From the IMG/VR virus record IMGVR_UViG_3300037424_000564, positions 141,057 through 205,056 of that record: a stretch of 64,000 bases of DNA. One strand, 5' to 3'. Below, piece by piece: positions 4,652 to 64,000 of this stretch. Every line of letters begins with the position of its first letter. Position 1 is the stretch's first letter. Under the pieces are notes generated by a model that was not told where the DNA came from, made no database searches, and saw only the letters and a program-made list of their open reading frames with translations. Source of the DNA: a virus (lineage: Duplodnaviria; Caudoviricetes). The position numbers and the translations under genes were made by a program.

Positions 4652-5141
4652 CGTTTTGTTCCTGTTTACACTCTTCTGCTGCATCTTCATCATAAAGATT
4701 TATTTTATCTAATGAATACATACTCTGTTCATTAATAGTATCAAATTTTATTTTGGATTGAGTATCTTCGTTGTTCCAGATTTGACGAAAGGAAAATTCA
4801 GTGATTTGAGTGAAATATGAAAAGGCATTATTAGATTTTTCAACATTAAAATTATGGGCATATTTGACACAGGTTAAAATAGCTTCAGATCGCATTTCAT
4901 CGATATAAGTATATCCCCTCCATCTTGGTTTCAATGCATAATGATTTACTATTTTCATAATACAAATAGCAATATATTCTGTCATTGGTGTCCATTCTGT
5001 TCTATTCTTATCTCTATCATTTTCTGAATTCTCTGCTATCCATGCGGCTACTGCCTCTGTAAACTCTTTGTTGTTTACATAATGTGGATTTTCTGTAGCT
5101 CTTTTTGATAATTTTCTTTTTGGTTTTACTTTATCGACCAT
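4641..5141 (-). CDS. gp55: Late-transcription sigma factor (T4 gp55)
   Basis: HYVNNKEF...YTYIDEM...NFNVEKSNNAFSYFTQI; T4-like gp55-gp47-gp46 order. Confidence 0.93.
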   Translation of the reverse strand: MVDKVKPKRKLSKRATENPHYVNNKEFTEAVAAWIAENSENDRDKNRTEWTPMTEYIAICIMKIVNHYALKPRWRGYTYIDEMRSEAILTCVKYAHNFNVEKSNNAFSYFTQITEFSFRQIWNNEDTQSKIKFDTINEQSMYSLDKINLYDEDAAEECKQEQNDGF

Positions 5142-21076: not shown

Positions 21077-21380
21077 AGGATGCCTCTTTTGTTGGTTTAG
21101 TTTTATCCAACTGTTTTATTTCATTATTAGTCTTTTTTATACTCTTATTTAGTACATCTATATCACGATCAATTTTTGGATACTCTGTTTTTTCTCGGTC
21201 TTCTACTTCCGCTAATGGTTTATTGATATCAATTTTAGTTTCTATTGTACTATGACTTCGTTTTAATGCTTCTAATTCTGTTTTTGCTGATTGCATAGAA
21301 TTCCACATGAATATAAATCCAAGAAGAAATAATATATAAACAATAGTATTAGCTATTAGTACTTTTATTTTACTGTCCAT
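20985..21380 (-). CDS. N-terminal TM + coiled-coil protein (possible i-spanin-like)
   Basis: TM segment IANTIVYILFLLGFIFMW followed by a charged coiled coil. Confidence 0.45.
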   Translation of the reverse strand: MDSKIKVLIANTIVYILFLLGFIFMWNSMQSAKTELEALKRSHSTIETKIDINKPLAEVEDREKTEYPKIDRDIDVLNKSIKKTNNEIKQLDKTKPTKEASYDKFKDKTFEEINLYWNNNPDTTTSDSSTK

Positions 21381-44225: not shown

Positions 44226-44282
44226 TAATAGACAAATAATTAATATCATATTATGATTAGATCAACGAATAGGAGATACCAC

Positions 44283-45491
44283 ATGTTTATAGCAAATCAC
44301 CCCAAATTATATATAGTCGGAGGTTGTGTCAGAGACATGATCATGGGTCGAGAGGCTTCTGATGTGGATTATTGTTTCTCCGGTTCTGAATCAGAATTGA
44401 TGAAATTGTTTCCTAAAGCATATCAGGTTGGTATTTCTTTTCCTGTGTTCATGGTAAATGGATGTGAAGTTGCATTGACTCGTACTGAAGAATCTAATGG
44501 AGATTCCTATGGTGACTTTATTGTTACTAATGTTGGGGTTTCTATTGAAGAAGATTTGAATCGTCGTGACTTCACAATGAATCAAATAGCAATTAACACA
44601 ATGACTCAAGAAGTGATTGATCCTACTGGCGGCAAGAATGATATTACTGGTATGATCATTCGTACAACTAATACTAAAGCATTTGAAGAAGATCCTGTTC
44701 GTATTTTGAGAGCAATTCGATTTGCAACTACCATGGGATTTGCAATTGAAACTGAAACATTCCAAATGATGAAAGAAAATGTTCATCGTTTGGAATTCAT
44801 CACCAAAGAACGTATTGTGTTGGAATTGGAAAAAATGTGGAAAGGTGCTAATGTGCCTTCTGTATTTTTTACAATTTTGAGCGAGATTGGTGGATTGAAA
44901 TTCATTTCTCCTGTGTTTGAAGCAATGGAAAATGTTCCTGCTGGACCTTTCAAATACCATGGGGATGATACAGTATTTGATCACACAATGAATGTCATCA
45001 ATCGAATCAAACAACATAACGGAACGTTCAGTGCATTCATTGCTGGATTGACTCATGATTTTGGAAAGACTGTGACTCCTGCACATGTATTGCCGGGACA
45101 TCATGGCCATGAGTTTAATGGGTTGGAATTGGCTAAAGAATTTATAACAAATAATCGTTTTGATTCTTACACAAATGAGTTGATCTTGGTTGCTATGAGA
45201 AATCATATGCTGGTTCGTGTTTTCAATGAAATGAGAACTATCACCAAAGTCAAATTTGTTAAATCTATTCCTAAGCATATGGTGGAAGATTTCAAAGTGA
45301 TTGTCTTTTCTGATCATGAAAGGTCACAGGAAACTAAAAATTTTATTAGTTTCGTTTTTGCAACTGTCAATTCTTTTAGAATGACCAAAGAAGATATCGA
45401 ACGTGTTAAAAATACAAAAGATAAAAAAGAAGTAGCTATCAGAATCATCACTAAACATTTGGCTTCTAAAATTAAGGAGATTGAAGAATGA
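44283..45491 (+). CDS. cca: tRNA nucleotidyltransferase (CCA-adding) with HD domain
   Basis: YIVGGCVRD..MG...DVDY, ALTRTE, EDLNRRDFTMN, EDPVRILRAIRF, ERIVLE, H...DHT...THDFGK. Confidence 0.92.
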   Translation: MFIANHPKLYIVGGCVRDMIMGREASDVDYCFSGSESELMKLFPKAYQVGISFPVFMVNGCEVALTRTEESNGDSYGDFIVTNVGVSIEEDLNRRDFTMNQIAINTMTQEVIDPTGGKNDITGMIIRTTNTKAFEEDPVRILRAIRFATTMGFAIETETFQMMKENVHRLEFITKERIVLELEKMWKGANVPSVFFTILSEIGGLKFISPVFEAMENVPAGPFKYHGDDTVFDHTMNVINRIKQHNGTFSAFIAGLTHDFGKTVTPAHVLPGHHGHEFNGLELAKEFITNNRFDSYTNELILVAMRNHMLVRVFNEMRTITKVKFVKSIPKHMVEDFKVIVFSDHERSQETKNFISFVFATVNSFRMTKEDIERVKNTKDKKEVAIRIITKHLASKIKEIEE

Positions 45492-47470: not shown

Positions 47471-49254
47471 AATCTTCTCAGTTTACCTTTTTCAAAAATT
47501 AATTTAGATTTACCATCAGTAATAATATCGCCTTCTTCTAAAGATTCAAGAATATCTTTACTTAATCCAGATTCTTGAGCTTTTTGTCTAAATCTACTTT
47601 CAGATGCTGGTGTTTCTGGAACTGGTGCTTCTGCTCCCGGTTGAGGTGCTTGTGCGCCTCCTGCTCCCGGTACTTCTTGAAAATCAGGGGGAACTTCACC
47701 ACCAGCAGCAGGACCACCCCCCATTGGGGCATTGCCAAGAGCGTCAGCTTCTCCACCACCAAGATCTCCAACAGAACTCCAATATTCAGCAATTTCAACA
47801 ACTTCTTCATCAGACATTCTTAGAATTTTCTCTTGAATATATTTTGGTGAAAGAATTCTAGCTTCAGCAGTTGCCAATCCCATAGCATTATTTGCACCAT
47901 TGACTTTAACATCAATGATTTGTGCTTTTTTAAGCATTGAAATTTCATTAGAAGATGCGTAAACAAATTTAATTTTCTCTTGAATATCTTTCCAATCGTC
48001 TAATGACATTACTTGTCTAGCAATCAAATCTTTTTTAAGTAAGTCTACAAATAAGTTATTAAATTTTCTTCTTAATTTCTGAATATATTTGAAGAATTTC
48101 ATTTCATCACGTTCGATATCAATAGTAGGATTGATACTGATTTTGCTTTCAGCATTTCTTCTACTTTTAGGTACACATAACGAACTATATACTTTATTTA
48201 CAAAATAATCAACATCTTCGAATGAAGAGAAACTAGTATTGCTCATATTCAAAGGTTCTACTCTAGTTCCTTTGCCTTGCGAATTAATAGGAAACCAAAA
48301 ATCTTCAAGTATAGAAATAGATTTTGCTGCATTATCAACAGTACCATTTTCAGTATTGTAAACTTTTTTCTGACGATACTTTGAAATTAAACTTTTCATA
48401 TACTCTTCAGCTTTAGTTTTTGGTAGATTCCCGGTATCAATATAGAAAGCACGTTTCTCTGTTGACTTTGTTAATCTATGAATGATAAGAGTATCTTCAA
48501 GTAAATAAAGTTGATTGATAGATTTCATTGCTTTTTGAATTGGACTGTAGTAATAGTTTTTATCAGGTGAATAAATGCCTGAGTTAATACTAGCAATCTG
48601 CTCATCAAAGTAAGTTATTTCAGGGTTTTCTAAATCTTTCATTGGATTATAAGATGAATGTTTATCAATATACCATCTAACAGTACCATCATGTTCATTT
48701 TTATATTTTTGAATATTAAAAGGTGGAAGAAGAATTAATTTCTGAATACCATCTTTTGGTTTTCTATTATTGTACACAACTTCAAAGTTCAATGTAGAAT
48801 CTACATACCATTGACGAAAAAGTTCTTCGCCTTTTTCATTAAAATCTAATAGATAAATTATCTTGTCAAATGAATCATAAATTCTAGATTTAATATTTTC
48901 AGTTAATTCAATATCATCTAGGTTAAGAGTAATAGCAGGATCAATTTCATCAAACACAATAGCTTCAGAAGTAATTTCAATTAATGCTTCATCAACTTCT
49001 GGAAGTAAAGATGATTCCCTCCATCTACGAATAAAATCACCATGATTAATAGGTTGAGCATTACCACCCAAAGCAAAAGAGTTACTATAATTATTAAATG
49101 GATCATAAGTAACGTATGGTGTTTCTAATTCTGTTTCTTTTGAAATTTGTGAGAAATTTTTATGGCGATCTTGCATTGCTTCTTTTTCAGAATAGAAAGG
49201 ACGATTCAATTGTTCAGTAAGATCTCCCCATGCTTCTGTAATATTTTTAAACAT
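47467..49254 (-). CDS. gp20: Portal protein (T4 gp20)
   Basis: PEVDEALIEI, FRQWYVD, LLEDTLIIHRL...RAFYIDTGNLPKTKAEEYM, LEDFWFP, G/P-rich C-terminus. Confidence 0.96.
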   Translation of the reverse strand: MFKNITEAWGDLTEQLNRPFYSEKEAMQDRHKNFSQISKETELETPYVTYDPFNNYSNSFALGGNAQPINHGDFIRRWRESSLLPEVDEALIEITSEAIVFDEIDPAITLNLDDIELTENIKSRIYDSFDKIIYLLDFNEKGEELFRQWYVDSTLNFEVVYNNRKPKDGIQKLILLPPFNIQKYKNEHDGTVRWYIDKHSSYNPMKDLENPEITYFDEQIASINSGIYSPDKNYYYSPIQKAMKSINQLYLLEDTLIIHRLTKSTEKRAFYIDTGNLPKTKAEEYMKSLISKYRQKKVYNTENGTVDNAAKSISILEDFWFPINSQGKGTRVEPLNMSNTSFSSFEDVDYFVNKVYSSLCVPKSRRNAESKISINPTIDIERDEMKFFKYIQKLRRKFNNLFVDLLKKDLIARQVMSLDDWKDIQEKIKFVYASSNEISMLKKAQIIDVKVNGANNAMGLATAEARILSPKYIQEKILRMSDEEVVEIAEYWSSVGDLGGGEADALGNAPMGGGPAAGGEVPPDFQEVPGAGGAQAPQPGAEAPVPETPASESRFRQKAQESGLSKDILESLEEGDIITDGKSKLIFEKGKLRRL

Positions 49255-49924: not shown

Positions 49925-50395
49925 TTATAGAAAAAATGGGCAATCTTTTTCTGTTAATATCAAAAATTCAACATCTATACCTGCTTGTTTTTTTTCTGCT
50001 ATAATTTGTCTAGTTGTATCCCATTTTGCTTGATTTATTATATATGTTTTAACTTGTTTAAAATAATTTTTAGTTTTACGTTTAGGTACTTTAGGAACAT
50101 CAACTTGACTTTGTGGTTTGATTTCAACCCAGAATTCTTTTGTTTTGCCTGATGCTGTTATAGCCTTAAATGTGAAATCCATAAAATATCTATGGTATTT
50201 TCCATCATCAGGTCGTATATATTTAATTATAGTAGATTCACTTGTCCATTCAATAATATTTGTATTCTTGTCAAGATATTGAGATATAAATTTAATCTCC
50301 CAACCGCTTCTAGCAGTAATTGGACGAGTTCCTGTATATTTCTCAGGATTCTTTAAATGAGGATACATATCATTTATTTGGTAATAGTGACTCAT
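49925..50395 (-). CDS. gp4: Head completion nuclease (T4 gp4)
   Basis: RSGWEIKF...WTSE...Y..PDDGKYHRYFMDF, VEIKP, NQAKW, FLILTE. Confidence 0.93.
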   Translation of the reverse strand: MSHYYQINDMYPHLKNPEKYTGTRPITARSGWEIKFISQYLDKNTNIIEWTSESTIIKYIRPDDGKYHRYFMDFTFKAITASGKTKEFWVEIKPQSQVDVPKVPKRKTKNYFKQVKTYIINQAKWDTTRQIIAEKKQAGIDVEFLILTEKDCPFFL

Positions 50396-51525
50396 TATTT
50401 TTTCTCTTTTGTTTTTCCTGAAGGCATGTAATTACCAATTACTTTAACTACTTTGAATGCTTGTTTAGTTAAAAATACAGTTTGAGTTGGTTCATTAGGA
50501 TGTATAATAGCTAGACCGGGATCTATTAATACATCATATCCCAAATCTCTTATTTGTTTATTCCATTTATTAGGATTAGGACTAGGACTATTTGAACCTT
50601 TACCACCAGCTAGAATATAAGTAAACCAAAAGAAAATTCCACCGGGATATTTTTTACGAATTGCTTCTTTTGTACCTTTGGTGTATATAAATTCTGTGTC
50701 GATTTCTTCAGATTTAGATGATTTGCTTAATTCTTTTTTTAAATAATCAATAAAGAGTTTAAAAAAGTTTTTTGTATTTTCTATCGCAACTTGTTTATCA
50801 GATCTTTTATACTGTTTCAAACTTTTACCAAAAGTTTCATTCCATGCGTTATCAAACAGTAGTTGAAACGTATCATAAACATAATGTCCTTCACTATATT
50901 TTAGAATAGGCTTTATTTCCTGCATGAAATATTCAGCAATAAAACTTTCAACATCATCTTTATATTCATCTTCATAATTATCAACAAAGAGTTCTATTTT
51001 TGTTTTATTGATTAATTGTCCTAGTGTTCCAATAACACCCTCCATTGATTTAATGTTTCCAGTTGAAATATTATTCATAAAAGACATTTTAATATTAGGA
51101 TTTTTTTCAATGGTTCTATCAATAATAGCTTTCACTTCATCTTCTGTAATATCTTTTAAATTTAAAGTTCTATCTAGTGCGATATTTTCAACTAGATAAA
51201 TGAATGGAGCTTGTCCCATAAAAGGTAATCCATCTAATCCTTCATTATCAAGCTGATATGCCACATCAACCAATCTATAAGTATAAATTCCATTAGGAGT
51301 ATCATATACACTTTTAGGATTTATTCCAATTTTGTGAGTTGGTTCATGATGTTTAGATCGAACATTTATATCAGCAGGTTTACCATTTTTATTTGTAACT
51401 GCTGTTCTCATACTAATAAAATAATTAGGTTCATCTAGATATGGTTCAAGAGTCTTCATAGGAAGTTCACGTTTGTTTACATCAGGATTTTTTCTTGCTT
51501 CGAAAAATAATTTGAATTGTAACAT
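50395..51525 (-). CDS. Hypothetical putative internal head protein
   Basis: Starts MLQFKLFFE; GINPKSVYDTPNGIYTY and LGYDVLIDPGLAIIHPNEPTQTVF motifs. Confidence 0.65.
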   Translation of the reverse strand: MLQFKLFFEARKNPDVNKRELPMKTLEPYLDEPNYFISMRTAVTNKNGKPADINVRSKHHEPTHKIGINPKSVYDTPNGIYTYRLVDVAYQLDNEGLDGLPFMGQAPFIYLVENIALDRTLNLKDITEDEVKAIIDRTIEKNPNIKMSFMNNISTGNIKSMEGVIGTLGQLINKTKIELFVDNYEDEYKDDVESFIAEYFMQEIKPILKYSEGHYVYDTFQLLFDNAWNETFGKSLKQYKRSDKQVAIENTKNFFKLFIDYLKKELSKSSKSEEIDTEFIYTKGTKEAIRKKYPGGIFFWFTYILAGGKGSNSPSPNPNKWNKQIRDLGYDVLIDPGLAIIHPNEPTQTVFLTKQAFKVVKVIGNYMPSGKTKEKK

Positions 51526-58165: not shown

Positions 58166-58723
58166 CTACTTTTGATGTTCTATTATTTTTTTAATATGAT
58201 TCAAAAACATATCTACTGAATGATCTAGTTTCATTCTGTTACATATCTCGCAACATGTAACACAATTATCAATATCATACCCCTTTGAATTATCTACTCT
58301 ATCAATTCCATTATAAATATATAACTCGTTATTATAATTTCGTTTGACTGTTTTTGGCGACGAAGAAGGTGGAGAACCACAATAATAACAATTATCTTTC
58401 GTTAACATAGAAAATTCTTTTCTTGTTAATGTAAAACTTTTTTTATATCTATAACTTGCTCTAGTTTTATAAACTGAATATAATTTCCTTTCATTTGGGT
58501 TATCATACTTAGCTTTACATTTTCCCATACCACAACTTAATGATCCAAATTTTCTAAAATGATATGCTGATTTAGAATAACTTCTGTATGACTCGTTACC
58601 ACATAAACAGCGAGTTAACCAATATGCATTTTGATGATTTATGTCATCCCCACGCATTTCATACTTATCGAGAAATGTAATACTTCCTATCACTTCTCCT
58701 TCTCTGTTCTTTATTACTCCCAT
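58166..58723 (-). mobile_element. HNH homing endonuclease (TAG stop)
   Basis: WLTRCLCGN, SCG..C, CYYCG, NGIDRVDNSKGYDIDNCVTCCEICNRMK. Confidence 0.85.
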
Positions 58724-58742: not shown

Positions 58743-58793
58743 TTTTCCCTTCAATGTTATTTATAAAATAAAACAAAAACATTGAAGGGAAAA
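58743..58793 (-). promoter_or_regulatory. TATAAATA late promoter inside a 16-bp inverted repeat upstream of the HNH gene
   Basis: TTTTCCCTTCAATGTT (58743-58758) / AACATTGAAGGGAAAA (58778-58793); TATAAATA at 58758-58765. Confidence 0.7.
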
Positions 58794-58798
58794 GAAGA

Positions 58799-58833
58799 AA
58801 ACCCTATCACCGGACTAGCTGATGATAGGGTTT
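58799..58833 (-). terminator. Terminator closing the amber-leader operon
   Basis: AAACCCTATCA / TGATAGGGTTT stem followed by TTCTTCTTTT on the minus strand. Confidence 0.65.
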
Positions 58834-58836
58834 ATA

Positions 58837-58905
58837 TTAAGTAGCAAAACATTTCTTACATTGTGGTGTATGAGACTTACCACACTCTTTACATTTCTTG
58901 CACAT
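58837..58905 (-). CDS. 22-aa Cys-rich micro-protein
   Basis: MCKKCKECGKSHTPQCKKCFAT; GAGGT site 7 nt upstream. Confidence 0.45.
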   Translation of the reverse strand: MCKKCKECGKSHTPQCKKCFAT

Positions 58906-58942
58906 AATCAATACCTCTTCTTTTGAGATATGATTATTTATC

Positions 58943-59260
58943 TTATTTGTACATTTTAAATTTTTTGAAGAACTTTCTATCCTCTCCATAAATTGGTTCT
59001 GTAGCAATTGCAGTAAAACCAGTTTCGTGATCAGGCTCGTAAAACATGTGAGACTTAATTCCTTGTAAATCCAATTTCAACTTTATATCAATCAATTTTG
59101 CCTGATCTTTGACCTCAAACAAAATAAAGTGACATGTCTTTTCAGGATGCTCAATTTGTTTCGTTATTTCTTGAGTTGAGTGAGCCGCCTGTATTATTTG
59201 ATAATGTAAAGACATGTCTTTTCTAATGAAGCAATAAGTATAAGGAGTCTAATTACGCAT
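58943..59260 (-). CDS. Peptidyl-tRNA hydrolase (Pth2)-like protein with in-frame amber codon at position 4
   Basis: AAGGAG-7 nt-ATG CGT AAT TAG ACT CCT TAT ACT TAT TGC TTC ATT AGA AAA GAC ATG...; read-through gives YTYCFIRKDM...QIIQAAHS...FYEPD...TAIATEP, which restores the family's first beta-strand. Confidence 0.72.
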
Positions 59261-59591
59261 TGTCAGTCTCCTTTAGAATAGCTCTAATTGCAATCAAATG
59301 ATCTTCTGTTAAGATACCACCAAACGGTGGTAGAATCCATTCTGGACGTGCATTGCAAACATAATTCATAGCTTTTCTATATGCTTCATTTCCAGTTTTA
59401 CCTTGACAAATTAATTTTCTCTTGGATTGCTTTTCTGGTGATGCAAAACATTGTTTAGGATCTTTGTCTCGTAAAATTGCGTAAAGAGCAAAGTCGTATC
59501 CAGAGAAATTGTAGTTGTCTTTGCATGATTGTTTCCATGCTTTGATCATGTTTAGATATTGTTCTTTAGATTCAAAAATTTCCATTTTCAT
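59253..59591 (-). CDS. Hypothetical protein, first full gene of the amber-leader operon
   Basis: 112 aa; stop overlaps the Pth2-like ATG (ATGCGTAA). Confidence 0.75.
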   Translation of the reverse strand: MKMEIFESKEQYLNMIKAWKQSCKDNYNFSGYDFALYAILRDKDPKQCFASPEKQSKRKLICQGKTGNEAYRKAMNYVCNARPEWILPPFGGILTEDHLIAIRAILKETDNA

Positions 59592-59601
59592 AGTGTGTAA
59601 T

Positions 59602-59661
59602 CCTTTATAGGTGATTAAGTTAAGTTAAGTTAAGTATACTTCACGTTATTTCCTATAAAAG
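59602..59661 (-). promoter_or_regulatory. Translational attenuator hairpin sequestering the SD of the 112-aa gene
   Basis: CTTTTATAGG (59661-59652) pairs with CCTATAAAGG (59611-59602), which overlaps the SD AAAGGA (59606-59601). Confidence 0.55.
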
Positions 59662-59697
59662 TTACGGTGGTCTATTTGAATGTGTCTATCGTTTCAT
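59662..59697 (-). CDS. Leader peptide M-K-R-[amber]-T-H-S-N-R-P-P
   Basis: GGAGG-5 nt-ATG AAA CGA TAG ACA CAT TCA AAT AGA CCA CCG TAA. Confidence 0.65.
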
Positions 59698-59747
59698 ATC
59701 AGCCTCCATGTGTTAGGGTTAAAGTTACGATCTATTCATAAAATCAT

Positions 59748-59776
59748 ATCATATCATTAGATTGGTTATCTGTCAA
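59748..59776 (-). promoter_or_regulatory. Early sigma70-type promoter of the amber-leader operon
   Basis: TTGACA-17-TATGAT. Confidence 0.8.
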
Positions 59777-59783
59777 TTAAAAA

Positions 59784-60083
59784 TCACCATCTATCTTGCC
59801 AACAAAGACAACTATCTTTTCTACCAGCAAGAAAATCTTCTGCTGCACGTAAACAACAAGGATCTGCACCAACTCGTTTTTTATATTCAGTAATTGTATT
59901 TTCAGTTTTAGATTTTCTGATTCTTAGTGATTTTAAAAGTTCAAGTTCTTCTTCAGTAGGTTCAAAATTTTCTTCATTTGGAATCCAAGCTTGATATCCA
60001 TCAACTATATGACATGGATAGTTAGCTGATGAATTACGACAATCATGTTGTCTACCACATGTAGAACAATTTTTTATTTCCAT
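59784..60083 (-). CDS. Hypothetical Cys-containing protein
   Basis: 99 aa ORF with AAGGA site. Confidence 0.65.
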   Translation of the reverse strand: MEIKNCSTCGRQHDCRNSSANYPCHIVDGYQAWIPNEENFEPTEEELELLKSLRIRKSKTENTITEYKKRVGADPCCLRAAEDFLAGRKDSCLCWQDRW

Positions 60084-60130
60084 TTTATTTTCCTTAAATT
60101 TGAAAATTTAATCTACCCAGATTCCATTAT

Positions 60131-60397
60131 TTAAATGAATGGAAGATAATCATTGTCCTTTGTAGATTTGACAATCTGTTTACAAAGATCGATTGTATCC
60201 TCATTACGATGATCAGAACGACCATTTTCAGCCCATTCTTTAATACAGGCCATGAACAGCCTCATTGTGGATTGTTGAAGTGTTCTATGATCGTTGCATA
60301 CCGTTTTAACAAATCCTTCAGTGTCAGGAGAAAAACTATTGACCAGTCGGGAAAGGGCTTCAGCAACTTCAGTTCCATTTTTTGGATTGATTTCCAT
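60131..60397 (-). CDS. Hypothetical protein
   Basis: 88 aa ORF with AAGGAG site. Confidence 0.7.
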   Translation of the reverse strand: MEINPKNGTEVAEALSRLVNSFSPDTEGFVKTVCNDHRTLQQSTMRLFMACIKEWAENGRSDHRNEDTIDLCKQIVKSTKDNDYLPFI

Positions 60398-60443
60398 AGT
60401 GTTTCTCCTTAAAAGTATTTTATTTCAATGATTAAATTAATAT

Positions 60444-60680
60444 TTACATATTAAAGTAAGTACATTTATGGGCTTCAACAATAGAATCATCTTCTATAAA
60501 TGTCAGACTGATTTTTAGTGTAATAGGATGAACAGCAAACCCTTTCACAGTGTTAATTTTTAGTTTTGACTTAAACGGTTTTCCCGAGACTTTTTTGACT
60601 TGAGTTCCAATAAGATCGGAAAAATTAGGATGGTTCATAAATGATTTAACGGCTTTCCTATGCCATGCTCCACTAGACAT
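60444..60680 (-). CDS. Hypothetical phage protein
   Basis: KVSGKPFKSKLKINTVKG...HP.T...FIEDDSIVE. Confidence 0.7.
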   Translation of the reverse strand: MSSGAWHRKAVKSFMNHPNFSDLIGTQVKKVSGKPFKSKLKINTVKGFAVHPITLKISLTFIEDDSIVEAHKCTYFNM

Positions 60681-60709
60681 AATAACTTCTCCCTTTGTAT
60701 ATTAATATA

Positions 60710-61261
60710 CTATTTACTATCTGTAATGGTAAATGCCATATCAGTATTATTAATAGAAGTTATTTTTGAATGATAACCATCCTTAAGTTTTTGTGTTTCA
60801 ATTTCAATAATTTTAATTTCATCGATATAATTAAATTTCGCAACCTTGATAGGAGGAACCCTAAGATTTTCGGGAAGATGTGTTTGAACACTTTTACATA
60901 AGTCAAAATAAACATCAGTAATATCGTGTAATCCGTCACTTGACCAACATGAATTATGATTACTTGTATTTTCAAATTGATCTAGTGGAATGGAGTTCAG
61001 ACCCCATGCTGTACTGACAGCAGACCAAACAGATACATGTCCTGTAAAAATCATGTGGATAAATTTAACATCAGAAATTGAGTCATAACTACTAAGAGTA
61101 TTACCATCAAGATAACCATAATAACTCGCGCTCATTTTTAATTTAATATAAAGAGATTTCTTCTTTTTATTGTCATAACTATTCATCGTGTTGATTGCAG
61201 GAAGTAGTGTTCTGACCATATTCGCTACAGTAATATTAGCATCCAAAGTAGCAACACCCAT
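60710..61261 (-). CDS. Hypothetical protein
   Basis: 183 aa ORF with AAGGAG site. Confidence 0.65.
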   Translation of the reverse strand: MGVATLDANITVANMVRTLLPAINTMNSYDNKKKKSLYIKLKMSASYYGYLDGNTLSSYDSISDVKFIHMIFTGHVSVWSAVSTAWGLNSIPLDQFENTSNHNSCWSSDGLHDITDVYFDLCKSVQTHLPENLRVPPIKVAKFNYIDEIKIIEIETQKLKDGYHSKITSINNTDMAFTITDSK

Positions 61262-61335
61262 GATAAATCTCCTTTTTGATTGGTAGTGGATTTAACTTTA
61301 TATCATATTTCAATTTCTGTCAATTTAAATCTTTA

Positions 61336-61605
61336 TTAAACTTTTGTTTGTAGAATTGGACACCATTCAGGTACAGGTTTCATATCTCGATATCCTTCAA
61401 CATACCCCATAATTTTTTTATAGGTAACAGATGGATGTGTGCAGTAATGATCACTGGCACACCCTGCATTAGGAGTAGCCCGTTCTTGTTCGAATACACA
61501 AGAATTTCGTCCTCCATGACTACAACCATCAATAGATGTACAAGTACGCCGATTGATAACAGTAGAAGTAATAGGAAACTGATAAGGAAAAATTGTTTCT
61601 GACAT
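61336..61605 (-). CDS. Hypothetical Cys-containing protein
   Basis: 89 aa ending PVPEWCPI. Confidence 0.65.
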   Translation of the reverse strand: MSETIFPYQFPITSTVINRRTCTSIDGCSHGGRNSCVFEQERATPNAGCASDHYCTHPSVTYKKIMGYVEGYRDMKPVPEWCPILQTKV

Positions 61606-61631
61606 AATTTATCTCCATTGTGATATGTTTG

Positions 61632-61703
61632 TGGGCAATGCGGGAATTGAACCCGCGATAGAGAATTTAGAGTTCCCTGCTTTAACCACTTAGCTAATTG
61701 CCC
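61632..61703 (-). tRNA. Amber suppressor tRNA, anticodon CUA (3' CCA not encoded)
   Basis: GGGCAAT TA GCT-AAGTGGTTAA-AGC A GGGAA-CT CTA AA-TTCTC TATC GCGGG-TTCAATT-CCCGC ATTGCCC A: complete 72-nt cloverleaf, followed by CAA. Confidence 0.92.
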
Positions 61704-62192: not shown

Positions 62193-62371
62193 TTATTAAT
62201 TAGTCGCATTGCTTTGATTATTGTATTTCTAGTTTCATCTGATAATAGATACCATGCGTTGTCTAATCTAACTTCAACCAATGCATTATGACAAATACTA
62301 GCCATATCATTTAATGCATTGATTGAAGCTGGAATTTTACATGGTTCTGGTGTGAATTCTATATCTCTCAT
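62189..62371 (-). CDS. Hypothetical protein
   Basis: 60 aa; overlaps the yqeY stop. Confidence 0.55.
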   Translation of the reverse strand: MRDIEFTPEPCKIPASINALNDMASICHNALVEVRLDNAWYLLSDETRNTIIKAMRLINN

Positions 62372-62820
62372 GATAGTGCCTGTTTAACTAAAACAGAAGC
62401 CATTTTCCCATCATATAGACCATCATATTCTTTTTTGAGAATTGACATCACTCTACCCATATCAGAAGGAGAAGTAGCATTGTTTGATTTTGTGATAAAT
62501 CCAATAACACCAATCAATTCAACTTCTCCCATTTGTTTAGGAAGAAATTCATATAAAATATTTCTCTCAATATCTAATTGAATTGGGTAAGTATCACATA
62601 GTTCAATTGTTTGATCAATCCCCTTGATAAATGCTTTAATTTTGTTAACACAATCTGTGTCAGTAATAAGACGTTGGCCATCATTCTTGGCAACCATTTC
62701 AATCTCCCCAATAAGAGTACCAAGAAGATTTGCTTTTATTTTGAATGATTTATTTCCAATTGCTTCTTTACGAGCAGCTACCCATTCCTTTTTAATCGTA
62801 TGAATTAGTTCTGGTTTCAT
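62368..62820 (-). CDS. yqeY: GatB/YqeY-domain protein
   Basis: IKKEWVAARK...LLGTLIGEIE...ITD...FLPKQM...DMGRVMSILK..Y.GLYDGKMAS.LVKQAL. Confidence 0.85.
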   Translation of the reverse strand: MKPELIHTIKKEWVAARKEAIGNKSFKIKANLLGTLIGEIEMVAKNDGQRLITDTDCVNKIKAFIKGIDQTIELCDTYPIQLDIERNILYEFLPKQMGEVELIGVIGFITKSNNATSPSDMGRVMSILKKEYDGLYDGKMASVLVKQALS

Positions 62821-63237
62821 TTTATTTCCTTTTCAATTTTATCTTCCAGTAAATGAATCATTTTGTAATAATCTTTTGCTGTTTTAAGTAGAGTTCGATA
62901 ATCCATTTGAGAGGATCAGTAGGAAGGGGTAAAAGTTCGAATCCTTCTCCACCATATTCAACTGAACATTGAGCCGCATAATCTAACATTCGATGTACTG
63001 AATTCACGCCATCTTCTTCATGTAATAATTCCATTAAGATTTCATTAGCAAACACATCATTATCTGTGATATTAAATCCTTGTTGCTTACCATGAGCAAC
63101 ATTTATTGCATAACATAAAATATCAACACCAATTGTTATTGATAGTAGTCCATCGACAATTTCTACAGTTAACGGTTTATTTCTCATAATCAAATCCTCC
63201 CATTTTTTAATCGTATGAATTAGTTCTGGTTTCATTT
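62789..63237. repeat. 34-nt exact direct repeat (62789-62822 and 63204-63237)
   Basis: TTTTTAATCGTATGAATTAGTTCTGGTTTCATTT at both positions. Confidence 0.9.
62858..63235 (-). CDS. Hypothetical protein whose first 11 codons duplicate those of yqeY
   Basis: Starts MKPELIHTIKK; internal M at MRNKPLTV. Confidence 0.6.
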   Translation of the reverse strand: MKPELIHTIKKWEDLIMRNKPLTVEIVDGLLSITIGVDILCYAINVAHGKQQGFNITDNDVFANEILMELLHEEDGVNSVHRMLDYAAQCSVEYGGEGFELLPLPTDPLKWIIELYLKQQKIITK

Positions 63238-63268: not shown

Positions 63269-64000
63269 TTAATATTTAATACATTCCATCACAAAACATT
63301 TTTTAGCTCTAATTTTACCAAATTGAACAGTGATGATATCTTCAAGATTTACACGACATATCAAATATGTTTTATTTGAACATTGGTTTTCCCAATATGT
63401 AGCATTTGAGAAATGTAATCCAGAAGTACAAGAGACATTATTATATTCAACATTTAAAGCTTCAATCCAAGAATTCACTGTATATTTAAAATATGGATCA
63501 TAAAATGATGATTTATCATCATTAACTTGTTTAAAACAAATAAGAGATTTATTCGAAGCTATAAGACCTGTTTGGGCTTTGATGTTTTCTCTGATGTTTT
63601 TTGGATCAGTAAGATCCACTTCACAAGTAGAAAAACTAACATACATTTCTTGTGAAATCACTGCATTACCGTGTACTCTAGCATTACCGGATACTTCAGC
63701 TTTATCGGATACACTAGCATCACCGGATACTATAGCATTACCGGATACTCTAGCATTACCGTATACCATAGCATAACCGAATACCATAGCATCACCGGAT
63801 ACTCTAGCATTACCGTATACCATAGCATTACCGAATACTTTAGCATAACCGTATACTCTAGCATTATCGGATACTCTAGCATTACCGTATACCATAGCAT
63901 CATATCCGATAAAGCAGGTAGGTTCTACTGATGCAGAGTCAGCTACCCAACCACCTTCAAATCCATTTGGGTTTTTATGTCGTTTAGCTAGAACTGATCC
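63269..64000 (-). CDS. Hexapeptide-repeat (VYGNAR) beta-helix protein, 5' end outside the window
   Basis: Frame is open to the window edge (RHKNPNGFEGGWVADSA...); tandem V-Y/S/F-G-N/D/Y-A repeats; C-terminal CTSGLHF domain. Confidence 0.8.
   Translation of the reverse strand, partial: GSVLAKRHKNPNGFEGGWVADSASVEPTCFIGYDAMVYGNARVSDNARVYGYAKVFGNAMVYGNARVSGDAMVFGYAMVYGNARVSGNAIVSGDASVSDKAEVSGNARVHGNAVISQEMYVSFSTCEVDLTDPKNIRENIKAQTGLIASNKSLICFKQVNDDKSSFYDPYFKYTVNSWIEALNVEYNNVSCTSGLHFSNATYWENQCSNKTYLICRVNLEDIITVQFGKIRAKKCFVMECIKY

Follow-up and report, generated by a model that had tools for sequence, protein, structure and literature searches.

The 64,000-nucleotide stretch analysed here (hereafter the window) comprises the final 64 kb of a virus record of 205,056 bp that is rated complete (IMG/VR IMGVR_UViG_3300037424_000564, Caudoviricetes; positions 141,057 to 205,056), and it carries on its minus strand a small operon in which two genes, a 12-codon leader and a gene for a protein of the peptidyl-tRNA hydrolase 2 (Pth2) fold, both have an early in-frame UAG, with a tRNA gene of anticodon CUA, the amber suppressor type, 2 kb upstream on the same strand. 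We consider it probable that this operon is gated by amber suppression, the leader serving as a translational attenuator that would sense UAG read-through and the UAG of the Pth2-like gene as a second amber lock. Comparison with related loci gives strong support for read-through of these codons. An initial annotation of the region, made from the letters alone, had proposed that the phage uses its own suppressor tRNA as a switch on the hydrolase, and this proposal is supported by the conserved TAG, the leader, the tRNA-CUA and the standard genetic code used elsewhere in the genome.

The early amber codon of the Pth2-like gene and its linkage to tRNA-CUA

The Pth2-like gene occupies positions 58943-59260 (minus strand, 105 codons) and begins ATG CGT AAT TAG ACT behind a Shine-Dalgarno (SD) sequence, AAGGAG, at 59273-59268, the in-frame UAG being codon 4 at 59251-59249. 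Both this gene and the leader can be read in the sequence to start ATG-NNN-NNN-TAG-ACN behind a strong SD, as had been pointed out initially. The read-through product has 105 amino acids and is modelled by AlphaFold2 (AF2) with a predicted local distance difference test (pLDDT) score of 95, residues 7-13 forming strand beta-1. The best 13 PDB matches of the model are all Pth2 or Bit1 proteins (probability 1.0, template modelling (TM) score 0.70-0.77). Archaeal and eukaryotic Pth2 enzymes (PF01981; PDB 1q7s, 2zv3, 3erj, 1xty) share with the window protein the same alpha/beta fold and a weak similarity over the whole Pfam domain, but their identity to it is 12-21% and the score of the PTH2 profile PF01981, 16.5 bits, lies below the cut-off of 23, yet spans profile positions 6-114 of 115. 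Six homologues of the protein have a precomputed PF01981 match. The protein had no match in NCBIfam, a profile search against PDB sequences gave 0 matches, and a six-frame search of the whole genome with PF01981 returned nothing at E <= 1. Cronobacter phage GAP32 also carries a separate canonical Pth2 (GAP32_382), which suggests a distinct job for the Pth2-like protein, and hhalign produced no usable alignment of the Pth2-like family with GAP32_382. The fold part of the original designation, peptidyl-tRNA hydrolase, is upheld by the AF2 model and its TM scores; with a Pfam score under the cut-off, the designation stands as a fold assignment only. Judging from the modelled fold, the protein would hydrolyse a tRNA ester, and the family-invariant residues Q24, H27, E31, H44, E75, P76, D77 and T83 are candidate catalytic residues only. 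The Pth2-like proteins make up a branch of the Pth2 fold that is widespread and specific to phages.

The best-conserved stretch of this family, residues 5-15 (TPYTYCFIRKD), contains strand beta-1, and the segment PYTYCFIRKD sits between the TAG and Met16, with no start codon between the TAG and the strand. Met16 is the start of the open reading frame (ORF) as listed under the standard code and is Leu in most relatives. Since a start at Met16 is not conserved and would drop a core strand, the UAG of the Pth2-like gene must, on the evidence of alignment and model, be decoded by read-through.

A blastn comparison of the operon region with GenBank phages gave no match, and a search of IMG/VR returned distant relatives only. 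Homologues had been named initially as the material in which co-occurrence of an early TAG, an amber leader and a tRNA-CUA should be looked for, and the outcome is positive: an early TAG, at about codons 2-6, is present in 36 distinct Pth2-like loci of 32-77% identity (from metagenomes and IMG/VR), and an amber leader in 20 loci, the window among them. The early stop is TAG in all 36 (0 TAA, 0 TGA), followed by A in 27/36 and by G in 7/36 (a purine in 34/36); a purine after UAG favours amber suppression, according to the classical suppressor literature. In close relatives from independent assemblies the gene starts M-H-N-TAG (L008), M-N-N-TAG (L009), M-S-TAG (L010-12) and M-S-H-TAG (L054), and continues (T/I)PYTYCFIRKD. 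Over 59030-59335, across the TAG of the Pth2-like gene, the window agrees in every base with a contig from an independent study of sediment, which does not reach the leader; this contig and the TAG of the independently assembled relatives indicate that the TAG is not an assembly error, an outcome against which the initial annotation had cautioned.

Linkage to the tRNA was found both in metagenomic loci and in GenBank phages. A tRNA-CUA was detected in 18/36 early-TAG loci, many of whose contigs are shorter than 3 kb, and it stands close by in all loci with a contig of sufficient length; it is the sole tRNA in L008-L012, L054, L062 and L064, and in L006, L010, L062 and L064 it is separated from the unit by 65-270 nt. 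The TAG-bearing phages of GenBank are Cronobacter GAP32 (M-A-Q-TAG), Ralstonia RsoM2USA (M-L-TAG), Acinetobacter ME3 (M-T-TAG), Salmonella Arash (M-L-TAG) and LR756511 (595 kb), and all of those checked (5/5: GAP32, RsoM2USA, ME3, LR756511, Arash) have a tRNA-CUA 0.4-13 kb from the TAG-bearing gene. TAG-less forms are present in GenBank in XacN1, CM1 and Xoo-sp13 (a fused form) and in RaK2, and a search covering 20 kb of flank in CM1 and Xoo-sp13 and 2.5 kb in XacN1 and RaK2 found no tRNA-CUA near any of these four genes.

These results correct the annotation of cultured phages, in which GAP32_397 and Arash gp84c/gp85c are marked truncated or split. The GAP32 gene (L058, JN882285.1 290138-290464) is annotated as GAP32_397 from an internal Met, with the amber part missed. 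In Arash (L069, OQ632216.1 about 50233-50729 and 49176-49247) the gene is split into gp85c and a 50-aa 'peptidyl-tRNA hydrolase', gp84c, and an annotated 'tRNA-Phe', at 21301-21372 of the locus, has the anticodon CTA according to ARAGORN. As cultured phages of Salmonella (Arash), Cronobacter (GAP32) and Acinetobacter (ME3) carry the TAG gene and the tRNA, direct genetic testing is possible.

The tRNA-CUA of the window (61631-61703, minus strand) was called by ARAGORN and by Rfam RF00005, the latter with 69.5 bits (gathering score 29) over the full length and with all four arms aligned. It is of class I, with G1-C72/G2-C71/G3-C70 and A73, and its CCA is not encoded; unlike the window tRNA, the tRNA-CUA of close relatives has an encoded CCA. 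ARAGORN returns exactly one tRNA in the window, in agreement with the first reading, and the remaining 25 tRNAs of the genome are clustered about 130 kb off, the CUA tRNA alone standing beside the operon. We infer that this tRNA is made, charged and active at UAG. The commonest neighbour of tRNA-CUA among other tRNAs is tRNA-Lys (9/29, at most 72% identity), from which no amino-acid identity follows. A 'Q' in the TAG column of the protein alignment was likewise rejected as proof of Gln, since P0023 and P0025 print Q where the DNA (L015, L016) has TAG.

The amber leader and the hairpin masking the next gene

The leader ORF (59662-59697, minus strand) has the 12 codons ATG AAA CGA TAG ACA CAT TCA AAT AGA CCA CCG TAA, read as M-K-R-UAG-T-H-S-N-R-P-P-stop, with its UAG at 59688-59686 and an SD, GGAGG, at 59707-59703. 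Amber leaders of the form M-x(1-4)-UAG-x(2-7)-(R/S/G/K)-P-P-stop, each with a strong SD, were found in 19 loci besides the window, distant ones included, and tRNA-CUA is the only tRNA in most amber-leader loci. After the TAG the leaders differ by synonymous switches between codon families, with Ser appearing as TCA, AGC or AGT, Arg as AGA or CGT and Pro in any of its four codons; such switches show selection on the peptide past the UAG, and hence that ribosomes translate beyond it. The last residues before the stop are N-R-P-P in the window leader and S-R-P-P or A-R-P-P in most relatives, whereas R-G-P-P occurs only in L070. In E. coli a C-terminal Pro-Pro stalls or slows termination whatever the context tested (PMC3834316), and R-G-P-P is the strongest arrest core of the RAPP-like kind (PMC12992588). 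A pause at the Pro-Pro-stop of the leader is thus predicted by analogy, and with a stop codon in the A site after R-P-P it would be a pause at termination and not a block of elongation.

Minimum free energy and centroid folds both give a hairpin at 59597-59665 (minus strand), the 5' arm of which (59665-59652) runs from the leader's last Pro codon and stop, and the 3' arm of which (59611-59597) contains the SD, AAAGGA at 59606-59601, of the gene that follows, here called the 112-aa gene. The duplex in the window has -14.9 kcal/mol (z -5.4 versus shuffled arms), and the duplex between leader end and SD has a mean z of -3.1 over 13 loci; in 15/15 loci a helix joins the leader end, the stop codon and the 10-15 nt beyond it to the SD or start of the gene downstream, with base pairs that vary among loci (AUAG/CUAU, ACUU/AAGU, AGUGU/ACACU). 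Duplex statistics were used here in place of a formal RNAalifold covariation test, as MAFFT aligned the leader region with too poor a register between clades. For the hairpin at 59597-59665 the accessibility of the SD is 0.20 in the free RNA and 0.45 with a ribosome on the leader stop; the modelled SD values for the three states are 0.22 (free), 0.23 (ribosome at the UAG) and 0.50 (ribosome at the leader stop), and the SD of the 112-aa gene in the window belongs to the least-accessible 12% of 199 genes. The anatomy of a translational attenuator, with a short SD-led ORF, a masked downstream ribosome-binding site and a helix that a ribosome at the leader's end would melt, is present in silico in 13-15 loci. 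The hairpin loop of the window contains four tandem copies of ACTTA (59618-59640), a run absent from the relatives, the loops of which differ in length and sequence.

The 112-aa gene (59253-59591, minus strand, from the ORF list) is the first behind the leader, and its 3' end is overlapped by the ATG of the Pth2-like gene. Its product has an all-helical AF2 model (pLDDT 90.7) and belongs to a rare family, with 23 representative relatives among 1.8 billion proteins. Fold searches gave no informative match, with E > 0.7 for Foldseek against the PDB, only uncharacterised proteins among the AFDB clusters (TM 0.5-0.6) and a best Z of 3.4 in VIA wide; the ESM Atlas contained nothing above chance, Pfam gave sub-threshold noise only, and there was no match in PHROGs. 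Even a relative of 38% identity adjoins a Pth2-like gene, in the locus L070, where a leader M-M-TAG-...-R-G-P-P-stop is found and, upstream of it, a sequence resembling a tRNA whose loop carries CUA. This sequence (L070, about 1440-1505) ends in ACCA, and its anticodon loop reads TTCTAAC; it is not called by ARAGORN and may be an atypical tRNA-CUA.

Proposed mechanism, rival explanations and known systems

In the mechanism that we propose, the phage tRNA-CUA would compete with host release factor 1 (RF1) at the two UAG codons. When RF1 wins, termination at leader codon 4 would leave the hairpin unreached and the SD of the 112-aa gene hidden, and the operon would stay untranslated. When the tRNA reads the UAG, the ribosome would go on for seven codons and pause at Arg-Pro-Pro-stop, where it would cover the 5' arm of the hairpin and release the ribosome-binding site of the 112-aa gene. 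The Pth2-like gene, putatively coupled translationally to the 112-aa gene, would form the second gate, with a further read-through at codon 4 needed for the first core beta-strand. Output would then climb steeply with suppressor activity relative to RF1, in the manner of a coherent feed-forward lock. The constant core of the unit consists, as far as the compared loci indicate, of a Pth2-like gene together with a tRNA-CUA and one or both of the amber gates, and the window holds both gates in series.

The leading candidates for the purpose of such a gate are tight control of a potentially harmful tRNA-ester hydrolase and feedback on the suppressor; a timer and a reporter of tRNA integrity are other conceivable roles, and the earlier idea of a sensor of the translation state or of anti-tRNA defence is speculation. 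A closed loop, in which the Pth2-fold enzyme, perhaps with the 112-aa protein, acts on the aminoacyl or peptidyl ester of the suppressor tRNA and read-through induces its own limiter, seems to us rather unlikely; if it were true, a natural riboregulator, the amber leader, would for the first time have as its ligand the event 'a stop codon was read through', and the orphan suppressor tRNAs of standard-code jumbo phages would belong to a module that regulates itself and travels among very distant phages.

Several observations weigh against amber gating as set out above. With 25 of about 287 genes ending in TAG, strong suppression would be costly; all 25 have a back-up stop 0-24 codons downstream. 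The nearest neighbours of the tRNA-CUA among other tRNAs do not exceed 72% identity and include several isotypes. The gene of this tRNA lacks an encoded CCA, although one of the phage genes codes for a CCA-adding enzyme (PolyA_pol family, 84.6 bits; 44253-45491, plus strand, the minority strand), which fits such a tRNA gene. The RAPP-type C-terminal core R-(A/G)-P-P is not found in the window leader, which has R-P-P, and the L054 leader ends R-S-P. The covariation of the helix was read from per-sequence optimal duplexes, a procedure biased towards pairing, and the shift in SD accessibility is modest, being absent in L016, L019, L029 and L034. Neither gate is universal: phages of the GAP32 type have the TAG in the gene only, without the leader, and in L062 and L064 the Pth2-like gene is without TAG (M-E-T-P-Y, M-T-P-Y). 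The last two loci keep a tRNA-CUA 100-270 nt upstream, the SD-masking helix and an amber leader (M-L-TAG-I-N-N-R-P-P and M-T-W-T-TAG-V-Y-N-R-P-P, respectively), and this retention suggests that the leader is the more constant gate in the clade of the window.

The rival explanation that survives best is that the gate reads RF1 activity, the tRNA being constitutive and the operon switched on when host RF1 is depleted, inhibited or overloaded, as an RF1 counterpart of prfB autoregulation. Since it is the ratio between suppressor and RF1 that sets read-through, this reading would be served by the same anatomy, and the phage genome contains no RF1 gene of its own; nevertheless we judge this reading improbable, since the tight linkage of tRNA-CUA across deep divergence marks the tRNA as a working part and not as fixed background, and since no RF1 inhibitor was identified. 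More improbable still is that the UAGs are true stops, the M-x-x-stop minigenes acting as upstream ORFs (uORFs) or as sources of drop-off, the Pth2-like protein arising by re-initiation or from a non-AUG start and the tRNA-CUA having another use. Peptidyl-tRNA, the substrate of Pth, does drop off more readily in short ORFs that combine a strong SD with early 'hungry' codons (PMC2490762, PMC10192219), and the codon after the TAG is ATT, ATC or ATA in 12/36 loci, but in the other 24/36 it is unable to initiate. Moreover, true stops would not be expected to be always TAG and never TAA or TGA in AT-rich genomes dominated by TAA, nor to be followed in the leader by selection on amino acids, nor to co-occur as a unit with tRNA-CUA.

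A genome-wide code in which TAG is read as sense (code 15), in use or under way, would make the two TAGs merely recoded codons. A suppressor tRNA is indeed present, TAG is the rarest stop (9%), and the acquisition of suppressor tRNAs is known from relatives of recoded phages that themselves keep the standard code (bioRxiv 10.1101/2021.08.26.457843). This explanation retains very little probability. Under code 11 the genome has about 287 ORFs at a coding density of 88%, with stops TAA in 202, TGA in 60 and TAG in 25. When TAG was read as sense, no pieces of a large gene merged, and no large conserved gene is split by TAG. A scan of the whole genome for early stops (an SD and ATG followed by at most 8 codons, a stop and a long open frame) gave the Pth2-like gene as the sole TAG case without a nearby downstream start. 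The TAG also stands at the same two positions across very distant phages. The initial statement that the code is not reassigned and that recoding is local agrees with these data on density, intact large genes and a single early-TAG gene. A lone in-frame stop early in a small gene usually marks a pseudogene or an assembly error, but either has next to no probability here, given the identical sequence in an independent sample and a TAG in 36 distinct loci with purifying selection downstream.

Amber gating of the operon resembles several known systems in part. As in the recoded phages in which TAG encodes Gln (code 15; crAss-like, Lak and other phages), a phage tRNA-CUA would make in-frame TAGs readable, and for those phages post-transcriptional timing of expression has been proposed as the role of the suppressor tRNA (bioRxiv 10.1101/2021.08.26.457843, PMC9523058). 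Here, however, the code is standard, 25 genes end in TAG, and TAG occurs early only in the leader and in one small gene beside the tRNA. What the sequences describe is, in our reading, a private switch and not a code change. With the leader attenuators of ermC/cat and SecM-secA the operon shares a short uORF with a strong SD and a next ribosome-binding site held in a hairpin, the 5' arm of which underlies the paused ribosome, and the window leader ends in Pro-Pro-stop like YbeL-PP (PMC3834316); it differs from ermC/cat and SecM-secA in that the input would be UAG read-through and not a drug, a metabolite or secretion, and in that stalling is here a prediction. The RAPP/RGPP arrest peptides ApdA and ApdP (PMC7897499, PMC10951233, PMC12992588) are likewise connected with small uORFs that end in Arg-x-Pro-Pro and regulate a downstream gene, and the leader of L070 has such an ending, R-G-P-P-stop, whereas most leaders of the present set end R-P-P-stop, with Arg directly before Pro-Pro, and have only 8-12 residues.

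An early in-frame stop that senses the balance of termination and decoding is also known from the UGA autoregulation of prfB (RF2), and in the PepNL leader UGA read-through by Trp-tRNA relieves arrest (PMC11890864). By contrast, the present operon has no frameshift site and a dedicated suppressor tRNA beside its targets, and read-through would switch it on via an RNA hairpin. A comparable design is a synthetic feed-forward 'leak dampener', which combines a suppressor tRNA with early amber codons for tight and steep control (PMC7969014); that circuit was engineered, whereas the one suggested here would be natural and widespread, with an added leader stage. Two serial amber gates that measure read-through would thus bring to natural circuits a design known so far only from synthetic biology. 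The authors of the XacN1 study did not find targets for the suppressor tRNAs of that phage (PMC5852040), the recoding literature is concerned with genome-wide code change and not with a private switch (bioRxiv 10.1101/2021.08.26.457843), and our full-text literature search for suppressor tRNA together with peptidyl-tRNA hydrolase or PTH2 in phages found no description of the arrangement. The unit offers a concrete and conserved target for the suppressor tRNAs of standard-code phages, which were not previously known to have one.

Remaining features of the operon and of the genome

The layout given in the initial annotation, namely promoter, leader, 112-aa gene, Pth2-like gene, micro-ORF and terminator, is present in every part on the minus strand. 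The promoter (59748-59776, minus strand) is of the sigma-70 type, TTGACA-17-(TG)TATGAT, with 11/12 matches in a consensus scan, and is one of 66 promoters with a perfect TTGACA (-35) in the genome, nearly all of which are on the coding strand. The operon ends in an intrinsic terminator (58788-58833, minus strand, by folding) with a 13-bp stem, a 9-nt loop and a U-rich tail (fold free energy -17.6 kcal/mol, z -4.57; equally stable shuffles 0/200), which a simple terminator scan overlooked because of the 9-nt loop.

The micro-ORF (58837-58905, minus strand) would encode 22 aa with a CxxC...CxxC pattern. In a second sediment sample (run X2), an otherwise identical contig has the 198 bases 58832-59029, which make up the 3' end of the Pth2-like gene and the micro-ORF, swapped for 105 others. 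The place initially given to the micro-ORF in the operon does not extend to relatives, as it has no counterpart after the Pth2-like gene in L054, L009 and L010; this absence and the replaced region in the second sample rule it out as a member of the conserved unit.

A second long inverted repeat (TTCCCTTCAATGTT ... AACATTGAAGGGAA) lies at 58743-58795, between the operon terminator and an HNH endonuclease gene (58166-58723); its only matches in Rfam are miRNA-like and at chance level, and it may be a second or bidirectional terminator. Elsewhere in the genome, two identical 29-nt promoter sequences are present in three copies each, one at genome positions 3478, 116901 and 184571 (window 43515) and the other at 4891, 79752 and 150397 (window 9341), which points to repeated promoter cassettes. 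The adjacent minus-strand ORFs 62368-62820 (150 aa) and 62858-63235 (125 aa) share their first eleven residues, MKPELIHTIKK, and then diverge, which suggests a local duplication of the gene start. Finally, an ORF open at the edge of the window (63269-64000) contains a long run of imperfect repeats of 7-8 residues (of the YGNARVSG / DAMVFGY type), with a matching repeat artefact on the opposite strand.

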